Position numbers and translations under genes: made by a program. The notes under the pieces were generated by a model. That model did no database searches. It had not been told where the DNA came from and saw nothing but the letters and a program-made list of their open reading frames with translations. Shown here piece after piece: positions 1-64,000 of a DNA stretch of 64,000 nt (the stretch's first letter is position 1; each line of letters begins with the position of its first letter). This stretch comes from Amoebophrya sp. A120 (lineage: Eukaryota > Protista > Dinoflagellata): the NCBI GenBank assembly GCA_905178155.1, contig CAJINV010000014.1:1815984-1879983 (forward strand), in the 5' to 3' direction.

Positions 1-1190
1 ATTTGGAGAAGCAGTAGCAGCCCCTGTCCCTGAGTTATTTGCAGCTTTATTTGACACGCCACCACCCGCCTTCTTGACGCCTTTAACATTCGAGCTGTTT
101 TTATTTCCTCCTCCTGCACTACTACCACTTTTCCCCCCGCCACTAGAAGTCGCACCGGTATTCGTCAAGGCAGAGAACACCATCGTTGCAGCGGCTTTGA
201 GTTTCGCCTTTGCGCCTTTGGCGTTCGCAAGTGTAGCCCCAGTTGTTCCATCTTTGTCGCCCGTGGCCTGTTTGCTTTTCATCCCTTCCGCCTCGATCTC
301 CAGATTGCGGTCGATCCGGACCTCCATCAGGATGCCTTTGTAGTCGGTGTGGGAGGGTATGATGTTGCGGGTGGAGAGCGGGTCGTCGAGACACTCGCAG
401 CACTGCACTTGAAATTTTTTTTCCGATAATTCCTCGTCGTTCATGATTTCCACCGCCTCCTCGCTGTACCAGCCCGAGAACACCCTTCGCGGGAAGACGC
501 GCAGATTCGGGTCCAGCACCCGCTTCACCTTGCGGATTATGCAATGCAAATTTATAATTCCCGCTTATGGAGGACACACAAAGACATCAACTTGTCATGC
601 AGAATTGGCTTGGAAGGTAAGTTCCGTCATGCAGACGCCGTGTTTGTATTTGTACTATGTAGTTGTTCTTGTAAGGGAATATCACTACATTTCCTGTGGA
701 TACGGATCCGCAACAGTACATCGGCCGCGCTCTTCACTTTACGAGAAAAGTTCATGAGCTTGCCCATGGTGCCGATCGTGCTGCTGGTCGTACTCGACGG
801 GCGCGACCCCGCCCCGCGCGTGCTGGGCCGAGACTTCGCGGCATTCTCGTAGTCGAAGAACGCCCCTTTGGTGTGGATGTCGGTGAAGACCGCTTGCGTG
901 TTGTCCGGCGTTTTTCGCAGCTGCTTCAAGCAGGCACGGACGTGCTTCAGCTGGCTCACCGTCTGATCGGCGTACGGGACCCGCATCCGGCTGCCGGTGC
1001 CATACCGCAGGATTTTCTCGTACAAGTCGTCCTCGAGCTTCTGCTCAAATTTCTCGTAAAATCGCAGGGTCCCAAACTCGTACAGTGGGGGTTTGCGCTG
1101 GGGCGGTGGCAGTTGCGGTGGCGGCTGCGGGCTGGGGGAAGCCGAAGCGCCATTTTCGAAGGAAACCGGCAGCGGCACCTCCTCCGACAT
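1..1190 (-). CDS. 5' part of an unknown large protein; paralog of the 5736-18007 gene; runs off the window
   Basis: ATG at 1190 (MSEEVPLPVSFE...). Near-identical to about 16540-18007. Removing 538-702 plus one TSD joins ...LLRIR|KVKRVLDPN. Confidence 0.75.
538..702. mobile_element. TAT...ATA introner-like insert, shared with the paralog
   Basis: TSD CGGAT at 533-537 and 703-707; ends TATGCAATGCAAA / TTTCCTGTGGATA; same insert at 17076-17238. Confidence 0.85.
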
Positions 1191-1967
1191 GAGTACTTTC
1201 GTTTCCGCCGGAACAAGTATCAAGGTTCCGGCTCTTCCCCTGCCCTAGGAGGTGGTGACTGACGCTCCCGCGCTAGAGGGTCGTGGTCCCCTGTACTAGC
1301 AGGTGGTGCGTCTTGTCGGCGCCGACATGGGTTAACTTTACCTCTAAACGACACAGCATGGCATTTGATGTTCAACTGGAGGGCGAACAGATAACTGACG
1401 ATCATGAAAGAGCGAAGACAGACAGTTTTCCGAGATCACGGCTTATAGCATCTTTACCAGTGGCTACCAATTATGATGAATCATGTAAATTTACAAAACA
1501 ATGGAAAAATCATGTAAATTACAATTTTATGGAGTAATTACAAACCGCGTTGAATGGATAGGGATAGCAGGAGCCCCGAGACCGTAGCAGATCACATCAC
1601 GATGACAGCTGTAGACCACGACTAGCATGATAACGGGACGCTCGGGCTCGCGAAGATAGAAGAAACTCTTGCTCTTATAGCTGAAGAACGACAACGACTG
1701 AGACGATCACGATACATACGATGCATGGTGGCAACGAAAACACTCAGCGCGCCTTTCCCTGGAAGAGAAAGGGGCCACCAGAGCCAGTTCTTGTACCTTT
1801 TTTTCCATCTCACAGCATAGGCACCTCCGTCTGAAACGAAGAAACCTACGAATGTTCGATGCAAATAAATAGCGCTGGACAATATCTGGATTTTCGGACA
1901 AAGTGAGTTTCTCGCGAGGTCGCGCTGCTGCACCAACCTCTAGCGCCCAAGGACATGGCTCGTCTTG

Positions 1968-5735: not shown

Positions 5736-8700
5736 TCATGTAAATCCCTGCTCATCAGTTTCTTCGAAACCAGTGTCCTCCTCCACGCCGAAGTATTCAT
5801 CGTAGAGTCTCTGCGCCACGTCGGAAAGCTTTTCGCACAACAGCCTCTCCCCCCACACCTCCAAAAACGCCTGCACAATCTGCAGAAACGGCTCCACGGT
5901 TACCACGGTACTAGAAGACGATTGTTTGTTGTTCACTGCGACAGCAGCTGTTGTGGTCATGGCAGAGAACAACGCGTCTGCGGTTGGTATGCATTGCAAA
6001 AGTATCGCACTCGTATATTATACGCATTACAAATTTCCCCAGCATGAGAAATGAAATTTGTAATGCGGATTTACCTTAACAAAAGGATTTGCAATGCATG
6101 ACTGCAATACGAGTGCGATACTTTTGCACAGGATAGTTGGGGGCGGTCTGCTATTTCGCATTGCAGAAACCAGTAAACTGTCAGCGAAGGAGGGAGATGA
6201 AGTAGCACCAGCTGCACCACTTCTAGAAGAAAAAGCATGAGATGAAACATCAGAGCTTCTAGTACCGAAAGAAGTGAAGCACGAAAAAGAGGCTTTGCTC
6301 ACTCGCTTTTCCCTTTCCTTCTTACTCTCCTTCCCGATCTGCAGGTCCGGAGTCCAGTCGTTGTCGAAATCCTTCCGGCTGTTTGACAAAAGTTCCGTCG
6401 AGATTTTTTTCCAGATCTTTTTCGAAACTTGAAACTGCTCGTCCAGAGGCTTTTGGTTTTCGTTTCGCTGGAGGAAATCCTGAATCGTCAACTTCAGCGG
6501 GTCGTGGAGACCCGTAGACTTGTAGTTTTGCAGAAAATTTTCCACCATGCTGGAGCTGCTCTTCGTAAAATTGATGGCTGATGTCGTTGCCCCGCTACCT
6601 CCCCCCGCGCCCGCAGCAGGACGGTCCCCTTGCTGCACTTTCCGAGAAGCCGCGCCGCGGTGCAAATCTCGCAAGATGCCGGAAGCGGAGGCACTGTTTC
6701 GGTTTGCATAATTTCCCCTCCGCGAAGATGAGGTGGAAGCCGAAGAGGTTCCAAAAATCGTGCTTTGAGAACGATTCCCACGCAACACTCCTGACGTACT
6801 CGCACTTCCACTGCGAAATTGTAATCTCGCTGTTGTTGAGCTTGTTGCCTTCGAAGAAAAAATCGCTGTTGCCGCGCCTGCGCCCGCACTTTCTCTTCGT
6901 CCCAGCAAAAACTGTCTCCTTTCCCTTTCCGCGGAAAATTCCTGCTCCGAGGCTGCTGCGGCAATGCGGAACAGGCTTAGCGCCTCGATCAACACGCGGC
7001 CTTTCAACCCCGAGGGCTCGTGGTAGGCGACGTCATCATTTTGATTGCCGCTTTTCGTTTCGTTCCTTCCATGTGGTATCCCGAAACCCGAGCGGCCCGT
7101 TGGACCGCACCGTTGGGGCTGGGTAAAGCGTACTGGGCCTATCTAACAAAACCGAGGCCCAGCACGCCTCACCACCACCTTGCCAAAAGGGCAAGACCCC
7201 TCAGAACCCCACCGCAGGTGGTTGAATGAGGGGAGACCCAGCCCCGCCCCCATTGCCCTCGGCAAGGCACAACGCGGACGCGAAGAGAGAATCCCCGCAA
7301 CGAGAGACGAGAAAGTACGGGACCGAACCAAAGAAAAAGTACCGGTGGGTAGTCGCGAACACGCCCCACTGAGTGGGATCCGAAAGCTGGCGTTGGCCAG
7401 AAAAGGAGCAAAGCAACCTTCCAAAGTTGGAGGAAATCCATGAAACAGAGTGGATATGCCATCGACAAGTACCTGCACACAAAATCCGCTCACATGTACA
7501 AAAACACTCCCAGGAAAGCCTGAAGTGCTCAAACTTGAGCAAGCAAATCCTCAGCCGGAATCGACTGGAGCAACTCGCAAGGGTCTTCCAGTGGTGTAGC
7601 CACTGTGGTCAGGAACCTCTGAATTTCGTCCGTCAAAGCTCCACAGGAGAGCAGCTGCACCCGGGCTACCCGACAAAACTGCGCCCACAAAGCGTCGCGG
7701 GTAGTTGCGTCCGCAACATTTTCCCCGGAGGGGAGCCACTCAAAGTACGGCACAATGGCAAAGCGGGCACACAAACTCCAAAATAACGCCGCGACCACCG
7801 ACAGGTGGGCGCGCTGCAAATGTGGAACGACTTCACCCCGTTGTAGTCCAAAACAGCCCGCGCAAGACTTTCCGCAGGCACATCTACCGAGGACAGAGAA
7901 TCAAGCGGGGAAGGCGCCCGCTGATGTGCTAATAATTCGGAGCGAGAGATCCCAAAGGCCTCGACGTCACTGTCACTGAAATCCTGCGCCACCTTTCTCT
8001 TCTTGACCGGCGGCGGACCCTTGCGGGCCGGGATCTCTTCTTCCCCTTCTTCCGCTAACAGGGCCGCACAAATTTCCTCTTCATCTACTTCCCGGGCCCC
8101 CAAGGCCGGAGCCTTCATCTTCGCGGCCGGTTTGGCTACGGCTTTCGCAGCTTTAGCCTTGTGGGGAGGCGCCTTCCCCTTAGGCTTGGCCGGGGCCTTA
8201 GCCTTAGCCGGGTGCTTCGCTTTCGCCTTCGCGGGCATGGTCTCTATCTCTAAGCAAGGTGCTAAGTGAGAAGCGTGTGAGTATACTGTGGAATTAGGCG
8301 GCAAGCTACACTTGCGCGCACCTAGAATGTCCCCTGTGAGAATGTCGAAGCAGATAAAAACAGGCAGCGTGTATGGTACCCGCGCCTAGTGGAAGGGGGG
8401 GAGGGGGATCTCATTTACCAGTAGCAAACTTTGCAGGGATTTCTAAACCGACCCCGATAGACCTAGAGCCCCAGCTCTCATCATGTCATCTCGTGCCAGC
8501 CCCTAGCTGGGGATCCTCTAGATTTCTGACCCAGTACCACGCATTTTCGTGGTAATAATTTGGATTTTTTCAGATGGTAGATTATTCCAACGCGAGTCTG
8601 AACATGATTTAGGTTGCAGTAGAATTGTCAAAGGTTCTGGCTGGGCCTCAACATATCGAGGAACTGAGGTAGGCGGGGGGCGGGGCCTTTCAACCCCGAG

Positions 8701-11700
8701 GGCTCGTGGTAGGCGACGTCATCATTTTGATTGCCGCTGTTAGAAGTCCGCTGGTCTTGCTGTTGACGGTCTCCAGTGCTGACGAACTGGTTCGGAAACG
8801 CGCCGCATTTATCGAGGGAAAAAAATTCGTGGTCGTGGGGGGACGCTGTGTAGAAAGACTGGCGAAACAGCAGTTGGGCGATGCTGTCGGGCTGTTTGTT
8901 GGCGACGAGATCCTCCATCGTGTGCTTTTCAACTTCCGGATACACCACAACGTGTTGCGTCGGCGACGTGTTGTGCAGAAAATGGTGGAGAAACGAATGT
9001 TCGGGCAAGTCCGGGCGGAAGGGGGAGCGCGAATCGGGTACAAGTCCTCGTCTCGTGGTCCGCTCGTGCTTGGCCTGATTGTTGCCCGGCGCAGCCGCGC
9101 GTTGTACCTCGGAAGAAGAAACTGTGCCGAAGTTGAAGGAATAGGCACCAGCTCCATGATCTGCGCTTTGCTGTGGGAAAGAGACCGGCTTCGCAAAGAG
9201 GTAACACCGCGTGTCGAACCGCTTGCGGCGATCCGTCAGGGTTTCCTCCGCGGCCGGCGCGGTGCTGGTCGTACTGTGGTCTCCGAACGTGCTACTAGCT
9301 CTGCTTTTCTCGTCGTCAACAGCTTTTTTCATTACAGGGGCTTTCGCCTTCTGCTCAACACCTACCTGCTCACCAGTTCCACCCACGACGACGTCAAAAT
9401 TCCCCGCTGATGTTATCTCTCTATCGTCTCCAGGAGATGACGTTGCTGCCCGAGCTTGCTCCTTCATCTTCTCCAAAAATTGTGGCAAATCTGCAGTGAA
9501 ATGCTCCATTTCCTCCGATCCAGGCACCGTGATCATGCTCAGAACCGGGTAGATGGCGTTGTAATTTTTCACTGGTTCATCTACTTTGGATGAAGTAAAC
9601 GCGGCGAACGCGGGAGCTACTTGTAGCTGATCCACCGACGACGACGTCGACGCAACTGCGTTACGACCTCCGAGTGCCGTGACAGTGTCGGGGTCAGCCT
9701 CAACATCTCCTGTTCCTCCAAATGAGCCTCCCACATCGGGGGCACTGAGATGAAACGTAGAAGTACCACGCGTCCTCCCGTCGACATCCTCGCTTTGGTG
9801 CTCGTCGTTCGTGAAAAAGATTACCGGTGCGTAGCTGTTGGCCAACCGCTTGTTTTTCCGCGCGATCAGCACGCTCACGTCAATGCCCTTCTTCACCTCT
9901 TCCCCCCGTTCGGCCAAAAACCTCTCAAAGTCCGCGCCCCGCCACACAAAATGCTTCCACGCTAACCGCCTCCGCGCGAACCACTTTAGCTTCTCAAACC
10001 GCGTCGCGACCGGGTCCTTGCTCCACTCCGGAATCCCCGTATCAAATGTAAAAATGTCTGGGTCTGGAAGAATTCATGTTTGTCATGCTTGTCTGGCGTG
10101 ACTCTTAAATCTGTCATGCACGTTACCTAAGAGCTCCGTTTTTTTGTGATGCAAAAGCGCAGTTTGTCATGCAGAATAGGCAACACCTAGGAGCTCAGAA
10201 ATTTGTCATGCTGCGCCAGCATTTGCAGCCTCATCATGAGACGCCACCCAGCATTACAAGTTTCCAGACCCAGACATTTTTACATTTGATACCCCGGCTG
10301 GGTCAGCAAATTTTGCCAGCACTTCCGCCAACAGGACCCGAGGTTGGATTTCGTATGGGAGTGTCAGCACTGAAATCGACAAAGTTGAAATAATTTGTAA
10401 TGCATAAAATCGATACCAGTTGGAAGCCCAATTTCCAAGCGGTGCATGACAAATTTCGGCACCGTCTAAATCCAGTCTGTCATGCTGTTTAGGGACAGAA
10501 GGCGTCTTTTGTCATGCTACTTTAGCAGCTCTACCGCAGACCCCAAGCATGCTCACGGTCGGCCTTGCTTGCCGCCCCTGCAAAAGAGGCACTTCATGCC
10601 TTGCAATTTGTGCATAAGAAATTCTTTCAACTTTGACGAGTTCAATCCTGACGCTTCCATATTTCGGGATGGGTCCGTAAAAGTTCTCTTCGTACTTCTG
10701 CCCAAAAGGCATTTTCGAGGTCGTGGCCCGGAAATACAGCTTGCATAACGTCTCGGAATGCAGGATTTCCTGCTGCTTGATGGGCTCAGGGTTGAAGATT
10801 TGCTGTGCTTTTTTTTCTTCTTCTTCCTCCTCTTCCTCCGCTGCTTGTAGTTGAGCTGCTCCTTCTTCGCGTCGCGCTGTGGACGAATCAGGTAACTGTT
10901 GCCCAACATCTTCTACATCCTCGCCGGTGGTGTTCGTGGACATGGTCTTCTCCTTTGCACCTGAGCCAGACGCGCTAGGGCTAGTACCGGGTTGACAATT
11001 AGTACGATAATTACCGGTGCCAGCAGTCGCACCAGTCTCACGTCTTTCCTTTTCCTCTTCCAGTGCGCGATTTTTTAAGAACAACACTTCTTCCGTTCTC
11101 CTATTCTCTTCCATTTCTTCGAACTTCTTCAAAATCTTCGGTTCCTCCGCCTTCAAATTGAAGGCCAGAATGTCCGCCGGGTTCGCCTTTTTCCCGCGCA
11201 TAAAGCTGTCCATGTCGGTATGGCGCTCTCAACTGTTACGCCCTCAACTGTTACATGATTTGCCATGCAAAATTGCCGTGACTAGCAACGCCGTCAAGCT
11301 GCTTCGCGTGACAAATGCTCAGACGGCCAAACAGGCTGAGAATCTGTGCTGCGAAATCTGTCACGCAAGACGCGCAAGGTCCTTCCTTTCACTTTTGCCA
11401 TTCTTGCGTTGCAAATTCATGCAACAGTTGAGAATGTAACATTTGAGAACGCCATAGTCGGAAAGGTGAGTGTGTTTGGAGAACGCGGACAGGCAAACCG
11501 TGATCGGCTTCAAATCCGATTTTCTCAACACTGGGAGCGATGGATAGGCTTTCGTGTTGTTGTTGGTTGGTGCTGCTGGGGGAATCGATGTAGTTCTTGC
11601 AATAGGTTGATCACCTCCACCTTGTTCAAACGAAACCACTTTGCTGGCCGTTTCTTGTGGTCCTGTGTTTGTCGTGCCGGCGGAGGTTGGTGGAGCGACG

Positions 11701-14700
11701 ACAACTAGACCGTCGTTGTTAACACCGTCACCCGCGGTCCTACTAGTTGCCCCTCCTTGTTCTGCCTCGGACGGGTTACTACTCTCGACGTCCCCCTCCG
11801 CAGCTGAAGAAGACGAGTCTTCTGTCGAGCTTCCATTTGCCGAGCTGCTACTTCCACCTGACGAGTCGCTGCTGCTCACATCAAACAAAACGTTCCGCAA
11901 ATTCTGGAAATCGTGCGGCATCTCCCGCAAATCTGTCTTTCCTAGCAAATATTCATGCCACTTTTCCTGGAAGAGCCGCGAGCTATGCAAGAAAAAAAGT
12001 GATGTAAGTGAAGTGTAACTTCTTTGTGTTGCATTCTTGCGCAGCGAAACACGAACTAACAGCTATCACCTGTCATGCTCGACAAGCATGCATCGTAGGC
12101 GAGTCTATCTGCGCATCACAAGTTTTTGCTGTCCACCCGGCAGATCGATATTTGTGTATGCTGTTTTCATCTTCACAAGAAAGTTCCACTAACACGACAG
12201 CCTTTTTCATCCTGGATACGAGTGTCGGTCTTCGTAGTCGGCATTCAAGTTCCTCACCCCATTCGGGTCAATGATCGCCAGGTATGAGAGTGCACAACTC
12301 CCCCTCGCCCTCATTTGTCACGCAAAACCCGAAATCTAAGTGCTTTCCTGTGGCACTGTTTGCATGACAGATTCCGGAAGCCCAAACAGTACTACACTAG
12401 GCGCGTGAATTTGTCATGCACAGGCTCCACGTGTGCTGGTGTTTGTATTTTTGCTGTTCATGCAATACAAATGAGGGGGGAGGGGGGGGCGGGAGTTGTG
12501 CACTCTCATACCAGGATCTGCAGCGCCTTTGGATCTTTCAGTTGGATCCACCACTTGCCTATCAAGTGCAAAAGCGTCTGGGTCTGGAAGAGTCATGCTG
12601 TTTTTGCATGACGCAGAAGGTCTGGCATGGAACCTATAGCATCACAGGTTTCGAGAGGCAGCTTCCGCAATGCCGAATCCGCATGACAAATGCCTCATTT
12701 TGGTGACAGAAAGTGGGTAGCTTTTGCTGCCTGTGCATGAGAGATTTTTATGTGTTGTGAAATGCGCCTAACAAGTTTGCATTCTTCCGGACCCAGACAT
12801 ATTTGCAATGCATATTGCCCTTGGTGCTGCTCTCCACGGACAGCAAGTTCGGAACGCCTTCGTTCGCCGCTTCGCGTTGGATGTCGCCCAGCGTCAACTT
12901 CTCGATTTGCTGCTTCAGCACATCCATATCCCACTTGTATTCCTTGCTGTACTATGAACTGCAAAAGTATCGCACTCGTATAAATGCATTTCTCAGCATA
13001 TGCGGATTTAGCTAAAACAAAAAGATTTGTAATGCATGACTGCAATACGAGTACGATACTTTTGCACAGGATATGTACCGCCGCTGCCACTGCATTCGCG
13101 TCCTCGCCTTGATCAGAAACTGAAAGTTCAACCGCAGCGAGGTGGAAGTGGTGAAAGTCAGTTTGTGGATTTTGTTCGGGTCCTCCGCGAGTTCTTCTGG
13201 GTCGATAGGGATCGGTGTCTTAATTGTCGTTTTCACAACTTGGATATGAGAGTACACAACTTGATGTTCACCCCGACAACTCAAACTCCGTCACTTGCAT
13301 GGTCTCTAGTAAAGTAATAGATGCAATAAAAGCGCCGTGGCGACGTAGCTTCAGCGGCACCACTGGTCCTAGAAATCGTAAATGCGAACAATTCCAGGTC
13401 CACATCCAGAAGAGAAAGATTGAGAATGATCAAGTCGGTATCTTGCATGACAAATCGCGGGAAAAAGTGAAAAGAAAGATTGTGCACTCTCGTATTGGAT
13501 CCGCACGTCGCCAAGAATTTCCATCACCCCGTCATTCCGGACGATTTTGTCGGGCTCCTGTGGCGGGTCTTCTTCGGTCTGGTTGTCGACGTTGTTGTAG
13601 GCAACTTCATCATGATTGACATCGTCTTCCCCCTCGCCAAAACCGACCGGCGCTTCGCTCACGCCGGGTTTGATCGTCACCGTTTCTGGCTCGATTGTGT
13701 AGTACGAGTTTTCATCCAGGAACCGGTGTCCGGGAAGCGGCACCTCCTGGATGTCCACGTCCGCCAGCATTTCCGCCTTTTTCGCCTCCAAAACGAACAA
13801 TTTCTCCCGCACCTTCTGAAGCCCGGCGCGGTAGGGTTTCAGCGGATTGGTTTTGTTTTTCATCACCCCCATATTGGCCATCACACCCAGCGCCTGCATC
13901 TTCTTCGCCATCCCGACAAAGTATGCGGAATACAAATCTAGCGCGCACGTAGACGGACGTTCTTGATGTACGAAATGCATACACAAATTTGCGCATATTA
14001 GTACCTGAAGAATCTTGAATTTCTTTCTTATGATGTGTTGTGCAATGAGAAGATCACAGGAGAAAGCGCTAGGGCAGAGCCCTGTTTATGCACGCGCGAC
14101 ATTTGCGAAACCCAAACCACCGACGCCGTGCCCAAGCGCAAGCCCATGCGCGCTAAATCATGATTTCTGTGCATAAAAACGTGACCTGCTTTTTCTCCTT
14201 TGGGTTTTCAACCTCAACGTCGTCAACATCCCCGACGTCCCCGAAGTAGCGCTTCCCGAACAATTTGCGCTCGAGCTTCTTCTCCTGGTCCCGCAACTTA
14301 CCCAGCGGCCCCTGCTCGAACTCGATCTCAATCTGGTACTTTTTCTGCTTCCGCTTGTGCGCAATGACCAGCGCGGCGAGGTCGGGTCCGCCGAGGAAGT
14401 AGTACTTCAAGTCCACCTTTGGTAACGCCGAGTAGGGATAGAGAAACTCGACAACCTCCTTCAATTCTTCTTCCGGATTATTTAGATGCGGGCTCGACGT
14501 TTTTTGCCCTTTTCGCTGCTCGGAAGTAGTACCAACAGTGATATTCCTTGCGGCCAGTGCTCGTCCACCCCGCTTCTGCTGTGCTTCCGCAGCTACAGGT
14601 TCGTTCACAGGTACCATTTTTTTCCGCAAGAGGGGTTGGATCCAGGAGAGCCGGGTGATTCTTCTTTCCGAGGTCAAGTAATCTTTGTCAAAGAGTCCGT

Positions 14701-18007: not shown

Positions 18008-18597
18008 GATTACTTTCCTTTCCGCCCGAACAAGTAATCAAGGTTCTGGCTCTTCCCCTACGCTAGGAGGTGGTGACTGACGCTCCCGTGGCCGACACGA
18101 GGCCCCAACTCAACCTCAAAACAATAAAGCACGGCATCTGAGGACGATCATCAAAGAGCGCTAGCAGCAGACATTTTTCGTCCCATATCATCTTCACCAG
18201 ACAGCAAACATAATTGACAAGATTCTCGTTTTTTGTAAAATTATAACAGGACGACTAAGACAACACAAGCTTGAGATGAAGGACAGGATATTAAGCACAA
18301 AAATTTTATTGGGCAAAAATGTAACAAACATGGAGTAAAACTTGCGACGACGATGTACTTCTACGCGAAGCGAATGGATAGGAGCCACATGATTCCCCGA
18401 CCTTCATATTCTCAACATCACGACCGTTGTAGACGACCTGGATAAGATGAGCCACAATATGACAGACTATTGGCAGGATGCTCGCATCGATAGAAACTGT
18501 TGCTTTTTTACAGTTTTTCTGTTGCTTTTTTACAGTTTTTACTAGCTGAAGAACAACGACTACAACGATGATCACGATAGACACGATAATGGCAACG

Positions 18598-30900: not shown

Positions 30901-30999
30901 TCTAGCAAATGCCGCACTTAAGTACTAACTTAAACAACGGAAAGAAAAGGTGGCGAGAGCCCGCCATGGACTTGGTCGACAGGGTTTGTTTCTTGTACT

Positions 31000-31814: not shown

Positions 31815-32009
31815 GAGAGCCCGCCATGGATTTGGTCGACCGGGTTTCTTTCTTGTACTCAATACACAGCGCCAGAAGCTGCACAAGCGTCCTCGCCGGT
31901 CTCGCGAAATAATAGCAATACAAAATATCATGACACAGGAAACTGGAGAGACAATGTAGCCACTCATCTGCTCGAACTCTTGCAACCACTCGAGGTGAAA
32001 ACCAACAAG

Positions 32010-49234: not shown

Positions 49235-50174
49235 GATGGGCAAACGCAGAGCTAGATGTTTTTCGTGTATAGTAATGAAGAAGCCGCTACGGTTGAGCGA
49301 ACGGCGATTTTACAAGAAATCTACGAATAAACTCGAACTCCAACTCGATGAATAAAAAATAGTAGATACTATGATGCAACACGGAACTTAAAAAAACTCA
49401 CCTTCTTCAACACTGGTCAACAAAAAACAACGTCGTCACTGATTTCGCCGATGCCAGCGTAAGAGATCTTCAGGGCCAGCTGATCGCGATCCTGACTTAC
49501 GACAGGAAACCATGATTTCAGATTTTTGTCTTCCTATGTTGATGTCAGATCGTCGTGGAATGAGCCTTGGTTCACGATTCCACTCGTTATGTAGACGTAC
49601 GTTGATGATCATTGACTTCTTTTCTCGATCTTGTTTCTTCTCTTGATTTTCATTTTTCGGTCACAATTTCCTGATCTTCTGACAAATTTTCTGATCTTGC
49701 CGCATCTTGCGTCGTCAATCGTGCCTTCATGAGAACGAGGAGCTCATTTTTTTCTTTCGTCCAAATTGATTAACGAGGGCAGTTACAACTACACCTCCGG
49801 GGGGAAGAAGAAGATCGGGAACACAGAGTTTGATCGACAGACGACATTGAACACCAGCACCAAAATCATACAGAAAAGCTTCTGCATTGCGAGATCGTGC
49901 CACGCTCGCGTTGTAGTGCCGAATCAAAGGGCAACTACTGTCGAAAATACATGCGCGTACAAAATATGTATGTGAAGCGTCGTGGTCAGTCGTTTTACTT
50001 TCAATGCTGAAACGAAAACAATTTATGGTCGCCAGTAAAATTTGTTGCTTCTTCATGCCCATCCGTCCCCATGCAGGAGGTCACGTGCAATAGCAATTTA
50101 CAGGAGTTTCTGCTTTCAAAGAAATGAAGCCAGATAACAACTACGCAGCAGCAACTGCGTTCATCCTTGCCGTG

Positions 50175-50492
50175 TCAGTCCTCTTTCCAGCAGTGCGCAC
50201 ACTTCTCGCACTTGTAGAATATCGTCATCGGCTCATCCGCACTCCGGGTCTGCATTTGTCGAAAGTAGGCGTAGCCGTGCATGCACACCGGACACTGTGT
50301 CGACATCTTTTCCACGTCTTTCCACGCTTCGGGGCCACCTAGTACGTCGGAGACTTGCTTGTTGACGAACTCCGTTTTTGAGAAGTACTTCTTTCGGTAC
50401 ACAAACTGGTACGGGCATGTTTGGCACACGAGCTTGCTTTTCAGATTGTCCACCAGAAGTAGGGAACTACAGGACGGGCAGAAAGTCGCCAT
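50175..50492 (-). CDS. RPC11: RNA polymerase III subunit RPC11 (POLR3K), intronless
   Basis: N-terminal FCPSC...CQTCPY zinc ribbon, DVLGGPEAW, and C-terminal QMQTRSADEPMTIFYKC TFIIS-like ribbon. Confidence 0.95.
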   Translation of the reverse strand: MATFCPSCSSLLLVDNLKSKLVCQTCPYQFVYRKKYFSKTEFVNKQVSDVLGGPEAWKDVEKMSTQCPVCMHGYAYFRQMQTRSADEPMTIFYKCEKCAHCWKED

Positions 50493-52207
50493 GGTTTAGA
50501 AGATTGATGATTGTGGAAAAAAAATACTTGTCTTCAATGTTGCTGCAAATAAGCTAGCTTATTCGTGTAGACAACGTGGCGTGCCAGTCAAAATCAAATC
50601 ACGCATTAGAGTACAGCTCTTGCATACTTGTTTTTTCATCATCTAGGTTGTGCTTCCATATTTGCATCCCTAAGCCGTGGCCTGCAGAAACAGAAAATTT
50701 TCATTTGCCAGGAGAAGGATTGAGGTTGTAACATGAGTTTTATTTTTTCATTTCTTCGCCAATGTCGAATTTCTATTGTGTCGTGATCCCAGTCTTGATC
50801 CGGTCTGCTCTACCGTGAGTGTACGATTTTCCTTTCCGCCAGACACAAGTAGGATCCTTTCTACTCCTCCTCCAGTAGGATCCTCCGCGTTATTTGCAGT
50901 TCGGTCTCTAAATCAAACGTGGATCGCAAAAAAATCAAGGTCGTGAGAAAGATCTTGTGCAGCTCGTCTCCTTGTTGTGACCTTACAAAGTGGACGATAG
51001 AACGATGAACGATATCAAGATCCTGTCGTTGAGTCGCGATGTCGGTGTGATCATGTTGGAAATAACAAGCGGTCCTGAAAAGACCTCAACACCGGCTTGC
51101 TGTCTTTTTCAGCAAGAACTACATTCTGACCAGTAACAGGATCATCATCATCATCATGATCCCGAAGTCGTAAAATGACTGCCCACCCCTGCGCCTGGAG
51201 AAGTGGTCTTCCGCGCACTATAATTCAATCTTCTGAAGAGACGTAGGGCAATTTGCGATCAGTCGCGGAACAACTTCTAAACTAGTACTTCCTTCCATCC
51301 GCCTACTCCTCAAGGTAGCGCTTCTGCGGGCATCAAGCCGAGCTAATTGAAGTCCGATAATTTTTCGTCGTGGTCCATCATACAAGGTAGTGGTAGATCG
51401 GCAGGAACAAGTACACTTAGAAACGAAACCGGAATGACATAATTTTAGACCTGCTAAAACGAAGCACGTGCAGGATCGCTAACAGTTACTATGGCATTGC
51501 TTTCACGCGTCACTACTTTTTGTTTTATTCTCTAGTGCTGATGCGACTTCTTTGAGTGTGGCCATTTTCTTCACCCCAGCTTCAACTTTTATCTTGTTCC
51601 CCATCGTTTTTGAACTTGACTTAGCCGAAGATCCTGGATCCGAATCGGTCCCGCATTTGGCAGTGGTGCGCGATGTGGCGGTTTTCCAAGAAAGCCTGCG
51701 TCTTCGACACACCTGCATAATTGATGCATCTACAGATTTTTTTTTTTAGTCGTACTTGCTTTGTCTTGGTTGCGCAGCTTGCTTCTCTTCTTCACATCCT
51801 TAAAGTTAAATCGCAGGAGCTGGAGCAAGATGCTAGTGCATGACAAGATCACGAACATGAATTATAGTGGTCCAGCCTCCAGCATCAAAAAATAAATGTA
51901 CTCGTCGCTGCTGTCGGCAGCGGGGGTTCGCCGGGGCCGCCGATCGGTGGTAGCTCGGCCCGCTCCGGGTACCGCACCAACCACGGCGGGGGGAGGTCTT
52001 GGGCTATTAAGGGAAGGAAGTTAGCGTGCAGCAATGATAAATTCTATACGAGTCAGAGTTCCCTCCACCAAATCCAAAAATATACATTCCCGCACCAGTT
52101 GTGCCATGAAATAACATGATCATCTTCCGAGTTGGAGTTCTAGATCATAATCTTCCGAATAGAACGGAAGCAAAAAAGTTGAAGAAGGTGTAGATCAAGT
52201 ACTCACC

Positions 52208-52816
52208 TGTTTCATCATCATAGTCTTTCGCGAAGGGCGGTCGCAACTGGCAGCCGCCGAGATTCTTCACCCGCGCTTTGTAGGCGATGTAACGGCCCTC
52301 GTGGTACACGGGGTTCGTTTCTGCTTCCACAAAACTCATCGACTCGGGTTGGTGCTGCTGTAGTTCCGGGTCTTGCTGTAATTCGCTCACCATCTGCTGC
52401 TGGGCCTGCGCTTCCGCCGTGGCGAGTAGCTGTTGGTCCGCCGCACTTCTGGCTGACGCAGGTAGCACCTCTGCCTGCCCCTGCACGACTTCGGCTGGAC
52501 TTTTACCCCTGGCAGACCCTCCGGCGGAACCCGGAGCGAGGGCCTGCTCACTCCGGGCAGAGCCGGGTGCAGCTGGTGGAAGCCCCGGGTGCAGGTTCTG
52601 GGTCAGAACGACGGGAGCAGCTGGCCCTGGAGCGGCCCCGGAGGCCGGAGCCGGGTTCAGTGCATTTTGCGCAACTACACCCGGCGGCGCACCCGCTCCC
52701 CCGGCGGAGCTGAGGCCGCTACGACTGGGCGGCTTCGTTGCGAACGGAATGGAGCTACAGGTGGAGGGAGGCCGCTCCGAAAAAGTAACCGTGTTCGTCT
52801 TGGTCGTGTCGGGCAT
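52208..52816 (-). CDS. first exon of an unknown protein; probably continues after a GTGAGT donor
   Basis: Pro/Ala-rich ORF ending ...DYDDETG|GTGAGT. Confidence 0.5.
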
Positions 52817-53683
52817 CGTGATTGTACTGGGGTTCTTGATCTATAATTGACTGTGATCGACTATTTAGTCGTGAAGGGGGAGACAAGTTGTTCCCCGTTT
52901 CAAAAAATTCGTACTTCTATACCCTATTCATTTTGATCTGTGACGATTTCAAGATCTGTCATCTCGTTCTTGGCATTCATGTTTCCAAAATGAGATAGAG
53001 AGGACAGTGTTATCAAAAAATACAACTGTTGCTGACTGTTAGTGAATCGCGGCCATAGCTTGAGGCAAATCAACGCGAAACAAAACTACGGAGTCAGCAA
53101 ATCATTTTTGTAGGACCCGCCTTTACTCGGTAGCCAGGAAACTTTATGGCATGTACCAAGTCAGGAAGCGGCAAGGAAGTTGCCGCTTGAGGTCCGGAAG
53201 TCGCTAGCTAGAAAAGAGCCGCGCTGCCTTTGAGGTACATTGGGACGAAGGTCGTGTATAATTCTAGTCATACTACAATAGATGGTTCTACTCTCGACGA
53301 TATTCACCCCTCTCTAAAGGTTCGCTCCATCTCGAATTTTCAGCTTTTCGGGGTCGGGCGGGAGATTTTGCTTGCATACTTATATCAAATCGAAATTTGG
53401 CCGAACGACTACCCTTCTCGACTGCGATTGAAGACGATTTGAAGCTTCTAGTAGTCGGAACACCTTATAGGTACCTTTTCTGGCATGACCGAAGAGCATT
53501 CCGCAACTCCATTTGCGTAGCTCGGTCGTCTAAAAATATGCGGCATCGCCAAAAGAAATAAAACAGGATGCGCTACAGCATGATTTTGTGAATCCAGTAA
53601 GAGGTCACTCAAACGAATATCACGACCCGTCAATGTCAAACGGAAAGAAGATCTTTGACAGTCAATAAATCTTCCCATACAAA

Positions 53684-55758
53684 TCATTCCCTCGCAGCAT
53701 CGGCGTGGAGGAGCAGCTATCAAATGTAAAAATGTCTGGGTCTGGAATGTTGCCGGGTTTGTCATGCATATTTTGCATGACCCAGGATGTCTGTAATGCA
53801 CGACCTAGCATCACAGATTTTTCGAGGGCTTCCTGATGCCTACTCCGCATGACAAATGCCCTCCCCGCGTCGCATAAGCTAGACTTATCTTGCTTGTCAT
53901 GCAATACAGATTTTTTTAGAGTCTAAACTTAGCATCACAAGTTCCAATTTTCCAGACCCAGACATATTTGCATTTCATAGCAGCAGGCACTTCGCAATTT
54001 TCTCCACTGCGTCGTCCAAAGACTCAAACTATCCTGTGCAAAAGTATCGCACTCGTACTAATCGCATTCATGCATTACAAATTATTTTCCCAAGTCAAAT
54101 CCGCATGACAAATTTTATTTCTCATACTGAGCTAATTTGTAATGCAATTAGTACTAATACGATCCTTTTCCACTGCATACAAACTCCGCCAAGTGTTTCC
54201 CAGCCACGTCTTTCAAAGGCTGTGCGGTATGGGCCACGTACTCGTTATCTGGCTGCAGGAAAATCTGCTCGCAGGCACAGGTGAGTGACAACAGCGTCCG
54301 ACCGACGGCCACGGCGTACACGTATTGCAGACACTCCTTGGGAAACTGCGTCGTTCCCTGGTGGAAGTACCCGTAGCAAATGTTGGCGATGATTTCCGCA
54401 ATGGATAGGGTTTCTTGGTACATGCAGGCATAGGCCGCAGTGATCCCGATGTCGTAGAGACAGTAGTCGAAGCAGCTGTCGCCGAAATCTAGCACCGCGC
54501 CGTACTCAAAGCACTTCGTGTGCAAATCGATGGCGCGGAACAAAATGTTCGTGTCGTTCAAGTCTGTGTGGACCCACTGCTTGCGAAAAAAGCGGCTGAG
54601 GAACTGTACTTCTTTCGTTCTCCCGTGCGTGTTGTCCTGCTCGCAGTCGGGGTCTACAACTCCATTATGCTGCTTGTCATAAAGCGAAGAACTCGCTCTT
54701 CCCAATTCCTTTTCCACTTTCTCCGGCGTTAAGGGCAAAACGTTCGCAACTCGCTCGGCCAAGAGTTTTTGCAGTTTCTTCCTCTCAGGCTCATCATTTC
54801 CCAGAAATTTCTCGATTTTGTCCGCCACAACCTCGGGAATTGTGCTCGTCGACCACTTATGAAATGCAAAAGCATCGCACTCGTAAAAATCGCATTACAA
54901 ATTTCCTCAGCAGTTAGAAATAGAACTTGCAATGCGGATTTATCTTAATGAAAAGCTTTGTAGTGCATGACTGCAATCGCTACGAATGCGATACTTTTGC
55001 AATGCATACCACTCCCAGGTGAAAGTTGCGGTTTTCAAACGCCACGGGTGTCGTTCATCTGCACCCCCGCAAAAATCCTCCATGGCGTCGTGGACTTCGG
55101 CGGTTATTTCGCCCAAATGCTGGAAAAATTCTCGCGGCTTCTGCACGTACTCGGCAGTAGCGTCATCCCTCTCCGGAAAGAGCTTAGAATCGTCGATGAA
55201 AGTGATCACGTGCACCAAACAGTTGTCCTCCTCAATGTGGTGAAGATAGGAGGGTATTGCAGTTATTTCTCTCGTAGTACAATCCGGATTTGTTGCTGTG
55301 CTAGTACCTCCATCCTCAGGCGCGGTATGAGCTTCTACCTGAACAGGGATCGGAACCGGACAGGGCACACCTTTTGCTTTCAGATGCAGCATTGCCTCCA
55401 CCTGCAGTTGCACGTGGTCGGCGCTCACATATTTGCTGTTTTGCGCTTTCACAACGTACGACTTGTCCTCGTGGAGACTACTTTTCTTCAAAAACACTCG
55501 GTAGTTGTGGTCGTCGTAGCTCGGAAGCTCGGTAGTTTTGGTCAAGTCCAGCTCCCCCTCGAAGCTGAAAACTTCTGCGACCTTCTCCAAATTCAGCCGG
55601 AAATTCCGCCTCGGGTTGCCGGATATTGCTGGCTCCTGCGGCGCTTGTTGCGTACTATCAGCATGGTCGGTGGGCAGATTATGTGCAGAAGCAGCTCCCG
55701 ACCCGCCTTGCTGCGGCTGCTCGGGCGGAGAGGTGCTAGCTGTGCTTGTTGCAACCAT
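53684..55758 (-). CDS. HYKK: hydroxylysine kinase (HYKK/AGPHD1)-like aminoglycoside-phosphotransferase-family kinase (~498 aa, 3 introner introns)
   Basis: ELPSYDDHNY, YVVK, Brenner-like WVHTDLNDTNILF, VLDFGD, PDNEY; spliced length 1,497 nt = 499 codons. Confidence 0.82.
53718..53979. mobile_element. introner family B
   Basis: TSD GCAGC. Confidence 0.92.
54030..54179. mobile_element. introner family A
   Basis: TSD CAAAC; joins LAEF|ESLDD. Confidence 0.9.
54858..55008. mobile_element. introner family A
   Basis: TSD CCACT; joins FTWEW|STSTIPE. Confidence 0.92.
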
Positions 55759-56897
55759 TTTCTTATTGGAGACACATCTTTTTTTGCAAATGAAGTAAAC
55801 TAAAACACACTGTAGTGCAGCATGTGTGAAGTGTGTGCTATTTAACAACGAACAAGGAAGCGCGGAACACTTGTCGCGAACTATAGGAAAAAGACCCAAA
55901 CGAGTACGATCCAAGTAGCACAGCTGCACTAAAAATCCTCGCCGCCGTGTTTCATCTGGACGTCGGGTTGCAGGACATTATATTACTCCTATGTAGGAGA
56001 TGAAGATCCACTGTGGCTATACCTTTTTGTAGTTGTACATTGTTCACGTTCCATGTCCTTCATCTCTTCTTCGCCATCGTCTGTCATGCATGATGGACAT
56101 CGCGCACCATCATGGTTTCTTGTTGTATTGATCTCTACGGTCAGTTTCTACTAAGCTCTTTTTTTCGTAAGCTTTGCTTTTACCGACGAGGAGTACTTCT
56201 TGCTAGAAATCAATATTTAGAAATTTTGATTTTGTTTGAATGTAAAGAAGAGTGGAAGAGTGGTTTTTCAGTGAGTTTTGAAGTGCTTTTTTGTTGAGTT
56301 TGTATTTGGTATACCTTAAAGGTAAAAAGCACAAAGCTCGACAGGAGAGAGTTTTTTAAAAACAGACGCAGGCATCTAGTCCTGTGCCCGCTCTGCTGTA
56401 CGTGCGTGCTTGGTGGTGCGCCCTCGTACAGCTGTTGTGTTTGCACTAGCTTCCAAAACTAGAGAAAGTGATGTTGACCTTCCGCAAAACAATTAGGTTT
56501 CCAAAACTAGTATACAATGATCAATCAATCAAAACGCACTCTCCGGTCTCGTTTAAGGAATTCTTGTCGGAGATCTTCGAAAAATCGTGGATGTGCGTGT
56601 GTTGCTAATACTATCACTTCTCTATTTCTACTGGCCCCTCTCAACAAATCGGGGCTACGTAGAAGGAATGGTGCGACTCCTTTGAAGAAGATATTAGCCG
56701 AAGCAATTATGTTGACCGATAATTTGTACAAATACTAGCTTGAGAAAGTTCCATACTATAACCTCAACGACGCTCATCTTTAGCTTGAGCTTGTCTTTGT
56801 CAAGTAGATCTCGTTATTTCAGTAAAATCTCGCGTGCTTCTTGAAAATCATGATCCCGCTTGATCGCCGCATGGTAACTCACGTCTCGCCATCAGGA

Positions 56898-58859: not shown

Positions 58860-60685
58860 TCACTTTGTCGGTGCATTGATGTTCCGATAGCTGGCTCCCT
58901 CCTTGCTCCACACGCCGATGGGCTGCATTCTGAAAAGCGCGAGCTTCTGCTCAAACAGCTTCAAAAGTTGGCACTGGTCCACGGTGAGTGGCTTGGTCGG
59001 TGTGCACACGGTGTAGTCGCTGAGCATCTGGATTTTCCCGTCCTTCAATATCGTGGGAAGCCCCAGGGAGCGAAGGTGTTGCTCCATGGAAAAGGGAAGC
59101 CTGTTGTGAGGATATGGTGATGCGTAGAATAAAATATTTTTTAGCCTTGCACGAATAGAATCTGCGGAGCAACAACAAGTTAAGCGAGGTAGCAAATGAC
59201 CCGTTAACTCGCACCCGCGAGATAGCCGGCCGCCCGGCCGGCCGGGCGATTAACTCGCGGTTAGAAGTGTAGACAAATCGAATTGTGGTGCAAATCTACC
59301 CCGAAGTGCTCGCCAAGGATTGGCGAGCACTTCGATTCAAATTTGTGCTACCTTTCGATTTGTCGGTACATTTCTAACCGCGAGTTAACCGTCCGCCCGG
59401 CCGGGCGGACGGCTAACTCGCGGGCGCGAGTTAACGGGTCATTTGTTACCATCTGCTTCATTGTCAAGTCGCGGATCATCTGTCACTGCCGGCACTCCTA
59501 GTTAGGAGTGCCGGCAGTGACAGATCCGCGACTTGACAATGAAGCAGATGGAGCTATCTCCAGTGCGTTATTCTTCATTTACACTTTGTGAATAGCAAAA
59601 AACGAATTTGATTATTTCATCAGGAAAGTTTTTAAATGTGTAAGATATCTTACGCCAATTCCCCCTTCGGTATGACGAATTGTTCGGATGGGACGAGGCC
59701 GGCCCGCGCGAAGGTTTCCCTCTGGAATTCCATGAAAAATCGCTGCACTTCAGAGGGCTCCATGTCGCAGCACCTATTTTGATTTTTGGTTCGGGGTCGT
59801 GATCAAATTCATTCAGTCTTCATCTTACGCCGCACTTGTTTTAGTCTCGAGTTTAATAGGAGATTTTTTTTTCTGTATTAGGAAGCTAAAACAACCAAAA
59901 AAAAAAATAACTGCAATCAAAAATTATCTTCTATCAGTTTTATACAGTAATGCGCATTCGTTCTGGATTTTTTCGGCCAGGTGCGATATTTTTTCGAAGA
60001 TTTCGTTTTCGACACTGTTTCCGAGTGCCAGCCGCATGATGTTGTTGTTTCCCATGAATAGCACGCCTTTTTTCCCGTCTTGCTGCTTGCTGAAAAAGGC
60101 TCGCACTTCCTTCAAAAGTTCGTTTCTCTGGTTCTCCACGTTGGGATATGAAAGTCAAAAATCATCCCGCCCCCCCGCCCCGGTGCTGTACTGCTCGTCA
60201 CACAGAAATAAATATTCCACGACTTCTACGCACTGCAAAATCCAAGCTATAGACATAGTAGCCAAAGCATGATAAGTGCGCACTAGGTATCTATACTTCC
60301 AGGCCTGGAAAGATCCATTTTGAGGGCAAAATAATGATGACTGGTGTCGTGCGTGTGCGCGTACCTTCTTTGATCAATACAACGGCTCGACAAGAATAAC
60401 TCGTGGTAGTGAACAAATTTATGTACTTACTATTCCTCGTCGGCCAGTAGACCCATATGCTTTTATTCAATACAGGTAGATTCTTGCCCTGTGACGAGTA
60501 CTCACGGGGACATGAAGATGCGGTTGATTTTTGAAGTTTTTTCCTCGGGATATGAGAACGAAGCAGTATTTGTGATTTTCCACAGCATCCTGAATTTTCT
60601 CGATGAGGTCGTCTTTCTTGTCTTTTGCGTCCGACTTCTTCACCTTGGACAAGGTGACCACCCGATTTCTCTTGCTGCGCGGCAT
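58860..60685 (-). CDS. MRT4: ribosome assembly factor MRT4 (multi-exon; exon borders approximate)
   Basis: MPRSKRNRVVTLSKVKK, VENQRNELLKEVR, FMGNNNIMRLALG, FARAG, FSMEQHLRSLGLPTILKDGKI, LTVDQCQLLKLF. Confidence 0.92.
59188..59450. mobile_element. fold-back MITE-like element (GGTA...TACC ends) in an MRT4 intron
   Basis: Imperfect inverted arms of ~115 bp starting GGTA(G/A)CAAATGACCCGTTAACTCGC; no TSD seen. Confidence 0.75.
59449..59551. repeat. near-perfect ~49-bp-arm palindrome
   Basis: CCATCTGCTTCATTGTCAAGTCGCGGATC(ATC)TGTCACTGCCGGCACTCCTA-GT-exact reverse complement. Confidence 0.92.
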
Positions 60686-62248: not shown

Positions 62249-62445
62249 GACCCGGTAGCTCAGCAATTGCCAGGAGTCGACAGCCAGCAGCTTGCGACAA
62301 TCGTTCGCGTAGGCTATGGGACATCCACATGAAAACTTCTGGTCAACTACATTCCAGCACACGTAGTACTTACATCAACAAATTAGAAGGACGACCTGCC
62401 TTTGGGAAGAAAACGTGGTCACGACCAAGCTGCTTCCTGCTTTTG

Positions 62446-64000
62446 TCATGATGCAGACAAGTGGGCCACGCGATTGTAATTCTTTGGTTGTCCTTCCGAG
62501 GAGTCATTTGATATTTCTGGCGCCTTTACAAAAACGTGTACGTAGTAGTTGAAACTAAAGTTCATGATGCATAGGAGCCGTGCGTAGTAGGGATCGACGG
62601 TAGAAGACTGTGGCGCTCCACCTCCAATTGAGTTCGCTGCTTTTCCTTGCGGCAAGACATCTACATTTACTGCAGCAGCCCCGTTGTGTTGCATTCCCGG
62701 CGCTACTAGCCCAGACCCTGTAGTGCCTGAGGTCGCCGTTGAACTTGTTGCAGCCTTAGAGAGGCAAAGAAGTGCTTTTTTCATGTTCAATTCCTTGCTG
62801 CTGGTGGTGGTCTGCTGTTGACCAAGTGCACGTTGTTGAGGTCGATTTGTGATTTGGTGGGCAAGAAAATTTTTATGAGCCCCGGCTGCATGATGATACT
62901 CACCAAGACCTGCTGCCTGAGCTTCGTCTCCGGAGGTGTACTCGAAAGCTAGCAGCTGCAGCTTTGTTAACAGTTTCTGAAGTTCGGCGAGGAGCAACGC
63001 TTCCTCGAGTTTGACCGACTCGAGGAGCACGGAAACCGACTCAAGGTCCTCGTGTAGATCGAGTTTTTCACCACGTCCAGACGTGCCCCCGCCGATTCTC
63101 TGGTCCGGATGCTCTAGTACTCGGTGCGACACCAGCCGCGGTGGTTCTTGTCGTGAATCAATGCGGTCCTGTGGCTGTGCTGGCATAGAAGTAGAAGTGC
63201 CACTATGTATTAGGTCGAGTAATGATCCGATTGCGCTTAGCGAGTCCGCTAGTGCAGCCTCGTTCTCTGCGTCTGCGCCACGAGCTTTGTGGTCGAGCTG
63301 CTGGAAGATGAAATTACTAAACCCTCCGGTTGATGTGCGTGTGCCTACTGGTTGTGTTTCTCTGGCTCCGTCTCCCGCTGCTGTTGAAGTTGGTTTTTGC
63401 CGGCTCATGGCGGACGAAACGACCTGCGAAACGAGCTCCAAAAAATGCACCAAATCTTGCAACCCTTCATCAGAGGAAGTGTAGACGGTGCTGTTGGTGG
63501 AAGAAGGAGGCTCAGATGACCTGTTGGCAGACGAAGCCGCGACTGCTCTTGCTGTATTCTGTGCAAAAGTTGCATCGCGCTCGTACTTAAGTGCAATATT
63601 CTTGTACAACGAGGACAAATAGACCTATATTAGCTGAACCCGCATGCTTAATTTCGTTTTTCATAGCATTGATTTCATTTTTGTGATGAAAGTAGTGCTC
63701 GTACGGCTACGGTGAAACTACAATTACACTCCTTATCCGCCTGTAGCTTCGTGCTCTTGTCTCACGGCTCCCACCAGCGGCTTCAGTTGTGCGAGCGTCG
63801 CTTGGAGGTCCGCGCTGCTCTTCTTCAAAGCAATTTCCAGCTTGGAGAGACCCTGCAACAGCTGTTGATGGTCGTAGAAGTACGTCGACTGCTGGTGGTC
63901 CTCGTTTCCTAGTGCTAGTTCCGCTCCTCCGTTTTGGTTCTTTTGGGCAGAAGACGACGAGGACGAAAAAATGTGCTGGGTAGAAGTAGTTCCACCTGAT
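62446..64000 (-). CDS. internal exons of an unknown multi-exon gene; starts beyond the window and probably extends to ~61.4 kb
   Basis: Long open frame 62446-63554 flanked by decayed introner copies. Confidence 0.5.
63555..63736. mobile_element. decayed family-A introner; right end uncertain
   Basis: Left end TATTCTGTGCAAAAGTTGCATCGCGCTCGTA resembles family A. Confidence 0.5.

Follow-up and report, generated by a model that had tools for sequence, protein, structure and literature searches.

Introner elements of Amoebophrya sp. A120 and a proposed fixed -1/+4 register for their removal

Known introners and the inserts of the window

More than 60% of the introns of Amoebophrya sp. A120 are non-canonical, with RNA-seq support (Farhat et al. 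2021, PMC7789003). The introner elements of this organism were described as 29,850 copies in 1954 families for which no transposase was reported, with inverted repeats made up of TAT, seven looser bases and a run of A, and with direct repeats of 3-5 nt (PMC7789003); later work did report one family that has integrase-like frames (PMC12130899). Their removal is still called open in PMC11282704, PMC11453091 and PMC12130899, partly because the duplication at the insertion site hides the cut. We analysed a stretch of 64,000 nt of A120 DNA (contig CAJINV010000014.1, positions 1,815,984-1,879,983, forward strand; hereafter the window) that carries many inserts with TAT...ATA ends. The inserts themselves are already published for A120; what our analysis adds is a proposed fixed register of removal, in which the intron starts 1 nt before TAT and ends 4 nt after ATA in the sense of the transcript (-1/+4).

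With the published elements the inserts share the organism, the design of the ends and an RNA-supported removal that does not follow GT-AG, and we see no difference in kind. In that report the border is unknown and the direct repeat variable (PMC7789003), whereas here the repeat is 5 bp long and flush with the ends, and the cut can be placed. Since the window encodes proteins identical to those of Amoebophrya sp. A120, the inserts are the published case and not a look-alike: they interrupt genes for A120 proteins, have TAT and A-run ends and a 5-bp repeat, occur repeatedly, are non-GT-AG and are absent from a transcript-like assembly. An initial annotation, made from the letters alone, had cited Amoebophrya introners only as a look-alike. 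No paper that places the cut or the branch point of these elements was found in a search that had most subscription journals outside its reach, and the text and figures of PMC7789003 may hint at the same offset.

Other systems come close in single respects. The transposon-derived, non-canonical introns of Fritillaria borealis also have inverted repeats and duplications, are removed by a U2 spliceosome of changed selectivity and favour AG-AC and AG-AT ends (PMC11282704, PMC13326754), whereas in the window the first base and the last four are free. The introners of Polarella, Symbiodinium and Aureococcus are likewise DNA transposons, with several register options and some of them in either orientation, which carry or recruit G(T/C/A) and AG, the source being either the element or the duplication (bioRxiv 10.1101/2020.10.14.339549); in the window, by contrast, no target letter is required. 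The non-conventional introns of euglenids and diplonemids resemble the inserts in lacking GT-AG, in ends that pair at a fixed offset, in short direct repeats and in a likely origin from miniature inverted-repeat transposable elements (MITEs), but they have a conserved stem and are released as circles (PMC11282704, PMC11170887, PMC12621601), whereas old copies in the window that have lost the stem keep U at +2, A at +3 and A at -7. A branch adenosine at a set short distance is known from Entamoeba invadens (at -8), diplomonads, parabasalids and some yeasts, where GT, AG and a strong branch motif are retained (bioRxiv 10.1101/2022.06.08.495308); in the window, the A at -7 has only a putative branch role.

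A plain scan of the whole window for TAT...ATA flanked by an exact 5-bp repeat gave 27 pairs, of which 24 had terminal inverted repeats (TIRs) matching at no fewer than 9 of 15 positions, against a mean of 1.4 and a maximum of 4 in 30 block shuffles; without the inverted-repeat filter the raw count of 27 is at chance level (25.6 in shuffles). When decayed copies were added by means of an end profile and protein mapping, the catalogue rose to 51 TAT...ATA-type inserts that occupy about 20% of the window. TAT..ATA is exact in 42 of the 51, and the two flanking 5-mers match at 5/5 letters in 27 copies, at 4/5 in 11, at 3/5 in seven and at 0-2/5 in six. The end profile, drawn from 24 copies, has TAT at 48/48 ends and A at positions 11-14 in 33-42 of the 48. 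BLAST clustering produced six groups of 2-8 copies, one of them a duplicated locus, and 26 singletons, so that the earlier estimate of at least seven families was a fair one. A GT-AG, GC-AG, AT-AC or GA-AG option in any of six offsets is present in five of the 51 copies: 36706 and 38903 (GT-AG), 12560 (GC-AG), 12953 (AT-AC) and 63555 (GA-AG). The initial annotation had named 36706 and 12560 as the sole exceptions, correctly as to both, and missed the other three.

With TIRs, an insertion duplication of fixed length and no coding capacity, the inserts have the features of MITEs or other non-autonomous TIR DNA transposons; they are non-coding copies of DNA transposons, namely the introner elements of Amoebophrya. 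For element 17565 a filled and an empty site can be compared in a pair of paralogues, the empty site having a single 5-mer that differs by one letter. No Rfam match was found in the window, and the end motif of family A was not found in viral contigs.

Removal from RNA and the position of the cut

All recognized genes of the window lie on the minus strand. Four of them bear on removal:

21444-27687, minus strand: P0001 gene, nine introns, all of element type
35914-44916, minus strand: P0004 gene, 19 introns, 17 of element type and two GT-AG
45641-49309, minus strand: ESF1 gene, with RRM_ESF1 split by an element and NUC153; joined form in X1
53687-55977, minus strand: APH/HYKK-like kinase gene; the A25 orthologue P0002 is continuous across 54858

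The sequencing runs X1, X5, X7 and X8 were compared on 36000-55900 only. Run X1, whose RNA status is deduced from its coverage, has uneven depth, with zero over 41976-45295. Its record 1 (3185 nt, no differing letter) follows ESF1 and skips 390, 239 and 115 nt, and in the kinase gene its record 4 lacks 156 nt, so that the element plus exactly 5 nt is missing at all four displayed sites. These are listed here, as are all elements below, without strand; the fraction gives the letters that match between the two flanking 5-mers.

46438-46822: element of family B, 5/5; X1 lacks 390 nt
47654-47887: element of family C, 5/5, with a strong hairpin; 239 nt skipped in X1
48512-48621: element of family E, 5/5; X1 lacks 115 nt
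54858-55008: element of family A, 5/5; X1 lacks 156 nt, while an X5 contig contains the element whole

Removal of the element plus 5 nt yields an ESF1 of 950 aa and a kinase of 498 aa from Met, and neither frame is restored when the element alone, or the element with both repeats, is taken out. The initial annotation had predicted 951 and 499 codons, which agrees once the stop is counted. Its wider claim, that an element and one copy of the target-site duplication are lost with no need of GT-AG, is supported by the X1 joins and by the protein models. Run X5 is DNA-like, with a flat depth of 26-31 in unique DNA and thousands over elements, and its contigs cross the borders of every element reached in 36706-55008 at single-copy depth. 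The raw-read RNA runs X7 and X8 gave three partial reads and no reads, respectively, too few to serve as a test. A search of public runs for the sequence listed none registered as RNA, which tells neither for nor against. The X1 joins and the X5 borders, together with the published validation of A120 introns of this kind by RNA-seq against the genome (PMC7789003), support removal at the RNA level well, and we regard it as highly probable.

A perfect duplication hides the cut site and a decayed one does not, so that the register can be read from decayed copies. The gene models of P0001 (1322 aa) and P0004 (993 aa), which were built from transcripts by others and match the window at 100%, exon by exon, contain many such copies; their A25 orthologues are 41-49% identical. 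The elements in the two genes are as follows.

21632-21773: element, 3/5, P0001 intron
21824-22502: element with TAC..GTA ends and a long inverted repeat, 5/5, P0001 intron
22804-23018: element, 3/5, P0001 intron
23066-23236: element, 3/5, end stem not above shuffles, P0001 intron
23396-23545: element, 3/5, P0001 intron
24180-24365: element with family-A ends, 0/5; P0001 is given only by the cut 24176-24366
25439-25685: element, 3/5, P0001 intron
25743-25851: element of family E, 3/5, intron position -5 changed; two registers fit P0001
25902-26235: element of family D, 4/5, P0001 intron
36706-36825: element of family E, 4/5, one register would allow GT-AG, P0004 gene
36875-37022: element of family A, 5/5, P0004 gene
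37365-37633: element, 4/5, end stem not above shuffles; two registers fit P0004
37780-38091: element, 5/5, P0004 gene
38150-38460: element of family D, 5/5, P0004 gene
38498-38695: element, 4/5, intron position -5 changed, P0004 gene
38717-38862: element of family A, 4/5, in the orientation opposite to 36875, 41047 and 41252 of the same gene
38903-39087: element, 5/5, intron position -6 changed, GT-AG possible in one register
39172-39440: element of family B, 4/5, P0004 gene
39548-39796: element, 1/5, intron position -5 changed, P0004 gene
40127-40325: element of family C, 5/5, nested inside a GT-AG intron
41047-41197: element of family A, 5/5, P0004 gene
41252-41396: element of family A, 5/5, P0004 gene
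41464-41669: decayed element, 0/5, folded ends unpaired; cut 41460-41670 or one base over
41713-41922: decayed element, 1/5, no end stem; P0004 is given only by the cut 41709-41923
42271-42552: element, 3/5, P0004 intron
42740-42916: element, 4/5, P0004 intron
42946-44229: element of 1284 bp, 5/5, long inverted repeat and subterminal repeats, P0004 intron

Loss of the element plus 5 nt fits all 26 element junctions of these genes, and six other lengths fit none. On the plus strand, start offsets of -5, -4, -3, -2, -1 and 0 are admitted by 23, 26, 22, 18, 16 and 13 of the 26; the only offset that fits every junction is -4, which is the -1/+4 register of the transcript, and each of the others is contradicted by at least three. 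The deciding junctions are 24180 and 41713, which admit only -4, and 41464, which admits -4 or -3; at 41713 the A25 orthologue carries the Val that -4 yields. Any GT-AG or GC-AG option exists at just two of the 26, so that these are not U2 introns of the GT/GC-AG type. A UAG acceptor, in which a G from the duplication would follow the final UA (cuts 4 nt up and 1 nt down), was considered and is contradicted by 10 of the 26 junctions.

The initial annotation had suggested that the terminal stem and the duplication together guide removal. Guidance by the duplication is not supported, as there are four annotated junctions at which it has decayed to 0-1/5 (24180, 41464, 41713 and 39548) and at which the element plus 5 nt is still lost. 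Guidance by the stem is weakened: in 23066, 37365, 41464 and 41713 the end duplex has z scores of -0.4 to +0.9, not above shuffles, compared with -5 to -12 in young copies. A stem such as introns of the euglenid type conserve is thus absent from four of the 26 annotated copies. As the geometry is the same with a decayed repeat or a decayed stem, neither seems to guide the cut.

One explanation that would dispense with a fixed register is a spliceosome for which the hairpin joins the ends while the cut takes no set place in the duplication; the single register would then reflect the building of gene models or a few old copies. It would accommodate the 13 junctions that admit every offset from -5 to 0, and the published statement that the splice sites vary in position with respect to the hairpin and that the border is unknown (PMC7789003, Fig. 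3 legend). We consider it improbable, because a sliding cut would not leave -4 uncontradicted throughout, because junctions without a duplication give an aligner no free choice, and because five of the six element ends at the deciding junctions were scored before the proteins were known.

Another possibility, also raised in the initial annotation, is excision at the DNA level: a somatic or stage-specific copy would lose the elements, much as ciliates lose their internal eliminated sequences, and transcripts would be made from the cleaned DNA. The transposon anatomy and the single duplication left behind would suit such excision, and the evidence from DNA is one DNA-like run of unspecified life stage with 916 joints outside the displayed set; in that run no empty site of the kind expected from programmed DNA elimination was seen. 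The X5 contigs across element borders, with 54858 contained whole in one of them, speak against excision, as does the RNA-seq validation cited above. Moreover, the cut follows the direction of transcription, with 1 nt upstream and 4 nt downstream in both orientations of the element, and excision of DNA would not know this polarity. We therefore regard it as very improbable.

A wider sample came from the end motif of family A, which was found at 152 loci or more, among the matches listed all in one assembly of a metagenome collection; the counts that follow hold among those matches, for an assembly that is possibly of the same strain. Both ends are present in 138 listed loci, with an exact 5-bp repeat in 100 and a 4/5 match in 28; the letters of the repeat are near-random, and repeats of 6-9 bp are absent and of 4 bp occur once. 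The +5 frame class was best in 82 of 130 (p 4e-12). A strand caller that was right 85 times and wrong once at its setting in cross-validation placed 97 copies, in orientations of 50:47, and on neither strand was there a GT/GC-AG option in 92 of the 100 perfect copies. A codon-likelihood test on the 28 mismatched copies disfavours the keeping of 0-3 upstream letters by 5.6-9.1 log units. A candidate trend in the window, a drift of old copies towards GT starts (9/16 decayed against 8/26 perfect), was not borne out in the 97 copies.

A proposed relaxed spliceosome and a possible stem-reading enzyme

We propose, as the reading that is on balance somewhat probable, that a relaxed U2-type spliceosome with a fixed distance from branch to acceptor removes the elements from pre-mRNA. 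The cuts would fall 1 base before the UAU of the element and 4 bases after its AUA. Donor positions +2 to +4 would be supplied by the first letters of the element (N-U-A-U, a GUAU whose first base is free), the branch adenosine at -7 would be the A that opens the terminal AUA, and the acceptor would be set by its fixed distance from that A and not by AG; the hairpin would be a legacy of transposition and at most a help. Because the ends are an inverted repeat, donor and branch signals would be present in both orientations, and because 1 and 4 sum to the length of the duplication, the original target would be restored whatever its sequence and whichever way the element lies. The A at -7 as branch adenosine is a hint only.

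In this register all annotated elements start N-U-A-(U/C) and 25 of the 26 have A at -7. Among these 26, U at +2 and A at +3 are invariant and the A at -7 has changed once, in a compensated form, whereas +4, -5 and -6 have changed seven times (p 0.06 against +2, +3 and -7). Two other copies in the window and three variants found later in the second assembly, the only ones among 115 non-seed ends, are also altered at +4 or -5 (the three at +4 twice and at -5 once). The GT-AG introns of the window, four of four, likewise combine a GTA start with A at -7 (chance 0.004-0.015), a likeness that is tempered by two of them being inferred from frame and one being perhaps an old element:

39883-40957, minus strand: GT-AG intron in P0004 that begins GTA and has A at -7; holds element 40127
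41973-42174, minus strand: GT-AG intron in P0004 that begins GTA and has A at -7; perhaps an old element itself
59101-59653, minus strand: GT-AG intron in an MRT4-like gene that begins GTA and has A at -7; predicted from frame only
59774-59945, minus strand: second GT-AG intron in the MRT4-like gene, also beginning GTA and with A at -7; predicted from frame only

For A120, nearly all spliceosomal proteins and the U2, U4, U5 and U6 RNAs were reported as found and U1 as not found; in Table S4 of the same report the nine predominant non-canonical motifs of A120 all have T at +2 and nine of A25 begin with TT, and the repeats of A25 begin TTARR (PMC7789003), which on our own reading resembles a donor.

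The single annotated copy without A at -7, 21824-22502, is 679 bp long with a 58-bp inverted repeat, and has A at -8 and -5 instead.

Several points count against a spliceosome that works in this register. The register is carried by three gene-model junctions and not by joins in RNA reads: the four X1 junctions have perfect duplications and are uninformative about it, and the displayed RNA contigs cross no copy with a mismatched duplication. The codon-likelihood test slightly favours 5 over 4 letters, by 2.6, and so does not confirm the exact offset, 4 and 5 being not separated with a leaning to 5, which would also suit a sliding cut. In the second assembly G stands at +1 in 25 of 97 copies, which is background (p 0.9), and the excess of terminal AG is weak (12 of 97 copies, p 0.02). 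The total tally of end changes, 12 against 1, is largely post hoc, the polarity pattern having been noticed in the data tested, bar three cases. The letters before the A at -7 (GG, GC, UG, UC) fit the YUNAY branch motif poorly, and the hairpins of young copies are very stable (z -7.9) and would sequester both ends. In yeast spliceosome structures, the G at +1, the G at -1 and the A at -2 are in direct contact.

The precedent of euglenids and diplonemids, by analogy, would also tell against the spliceosome and for the principal alternative, a structure-guided endonuclease whose staggered cut at the terminal hairpin has a fixed size (5' side, 1 nt; 3' side, 4 nt), after which an RNA ligase joins the exons and the intron leaves as a linear or circular RNA. 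Such a stagger accounts for the register equally well. Young copies have long terminal stems, with z of -4 to -12 in most annotated copies, removal is blind to orientation, U1 RNA was not found in A120 (PMC7789003), and the stem-bounded introns of euglenids are released as circles (PMC11282704, PMC12621601). However, the geometry of the cut is identical in the four annotated copies whose ends do not pair, changes of the U at +4 are uncompensated in five copies and so break the pair, and the A at -7 never changes alone, although A to G would keep a wobble pair. A reader of the stem should tolerate A to G at -7 better than U to C at +4; the reverse is seen, which argues against such an enzyme, as does the sharing of U at +2, A at +3 and A at -7 by the GT-AG introns. 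We consider this explanation unlikely, though it deserves to be taken seriously.

If the spliceosome is responsible, the conserved contacts to G...AG would be replaceable by a distance rule, and there would be a simple arithmetic condition under which a transposon could turn into an intron at any site, namely that the overhangs sum to the length of the duplication. A more far-reaching possibility, which we hold tentatively and would stop short of calling probable, is that the spliceosome of this organism dropped the first G and the final AG, that an intron became U-A at +2/+3 with a branch A exactly 7 from the end, and that the TAT...ATA transposon fits this at any site and in any orientation, A25 being an independent fit. 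Were this true, the transposon would be a universally harmless, self-erasing insertion, and the spread of tens of thousands of copies through coding exons would be explained. The fixed register itself makes the mechanism directly testable and would let gene finders place some 30,000 borders of this genome unambiguously.

Other elements and features of the window

The longest copy, 42946-44229, has an X5 depth of a few copies and is removed in the gene model by the same rule. A transposase gave no signal in five of its frames searched against Pfam, nor in one frame searched against Atlas; the copy is a candidate derivative of the missing autonomous element. The remaining elements are:

538-702: element, 5/5; paralogue at 17076
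5988-6135: element of family A, 5/5
10040-10291: element of family B, 5/5
10354-10661: element of family D, 5/5
11219-11456: element, 5/5
11984-12218: element, 4/5
12283-12510: element of family C, 5/5
12560-12814: element of family B, 5/5; GC-AG possible in one register
12953-13073: element of family A, 5/5
13245-13494: element, 5/5, TAT..GTA (intron position +4 changed)
17076-17238: element, 5/5; paralogue of 538
17565-17828: element, 5/5; the paralogue has the empty site, near 1024
20313-20557: element, 4/5
29828-30218: element, 5/5, without a recognized host gene
30286-30628: element of family C, 1/5, without a recognized host gene
34217-34395: element, 4/5
53718-53979: element of family B, 5/5 
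54030-54179: element of family A, 5/5
60147-60552: element, 4/5, in the MRT4-like gene
63555-63735: decayed element, 2/5, TAT..TTA, intron position +4 changed

At 63555-63735, taking out 186 nt leaves one frame open. A further gene was recognized from its elements:

8631-14085, minus strand: frame of 1176 codons, restored by removal of eight elements with 5 nt each

The basis for these eight junctions is frame restoration only, which here too fails when the elements are taken out alone or with both repeats, and no Pfam match was found in the pieces of this gene that were scanned. A duplicated gene, 13-1270 and 16545-18088, is about 93% alike between its copies; the element at 538/17076 is common to both and 17565 is in one copy only, so that insertions both preceded and followed the gene duplication.

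The layout of genes on one strand resembles the unidirectional gene clusters described for Amoebophrya. No relatives of P0004 were found in metagenome contigs. In addition to element 40127, the GT-AG intron 39883-40957 contains exon-like pieces that repeat parts of the coding motifs of its host gene, and at 59215-59500 an intron of the MRT4-like gene holds palindromic GC-rich repeats unlike the TAT elements. At 44230-49117, the database protein P0006 joins the domains of ESF1 to a piece that matches the adjoining gene, and so points to a relative in which either gene order is conserved or the gene model is fused. About 4 kb without a clear coding signal (27800-32000) carry tandem repeats besides elements 29828 and 30286. 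A 61-bp direct repeat in coding sequence (6995-7055 and 8681-8741) flanks about 1.7 kb that holds a lysine/alanine-rich frame at 7666-8385, negative in Pfam; this stretch is possibly a different insertion that splits a long gene, whose frame resumes at 7064.

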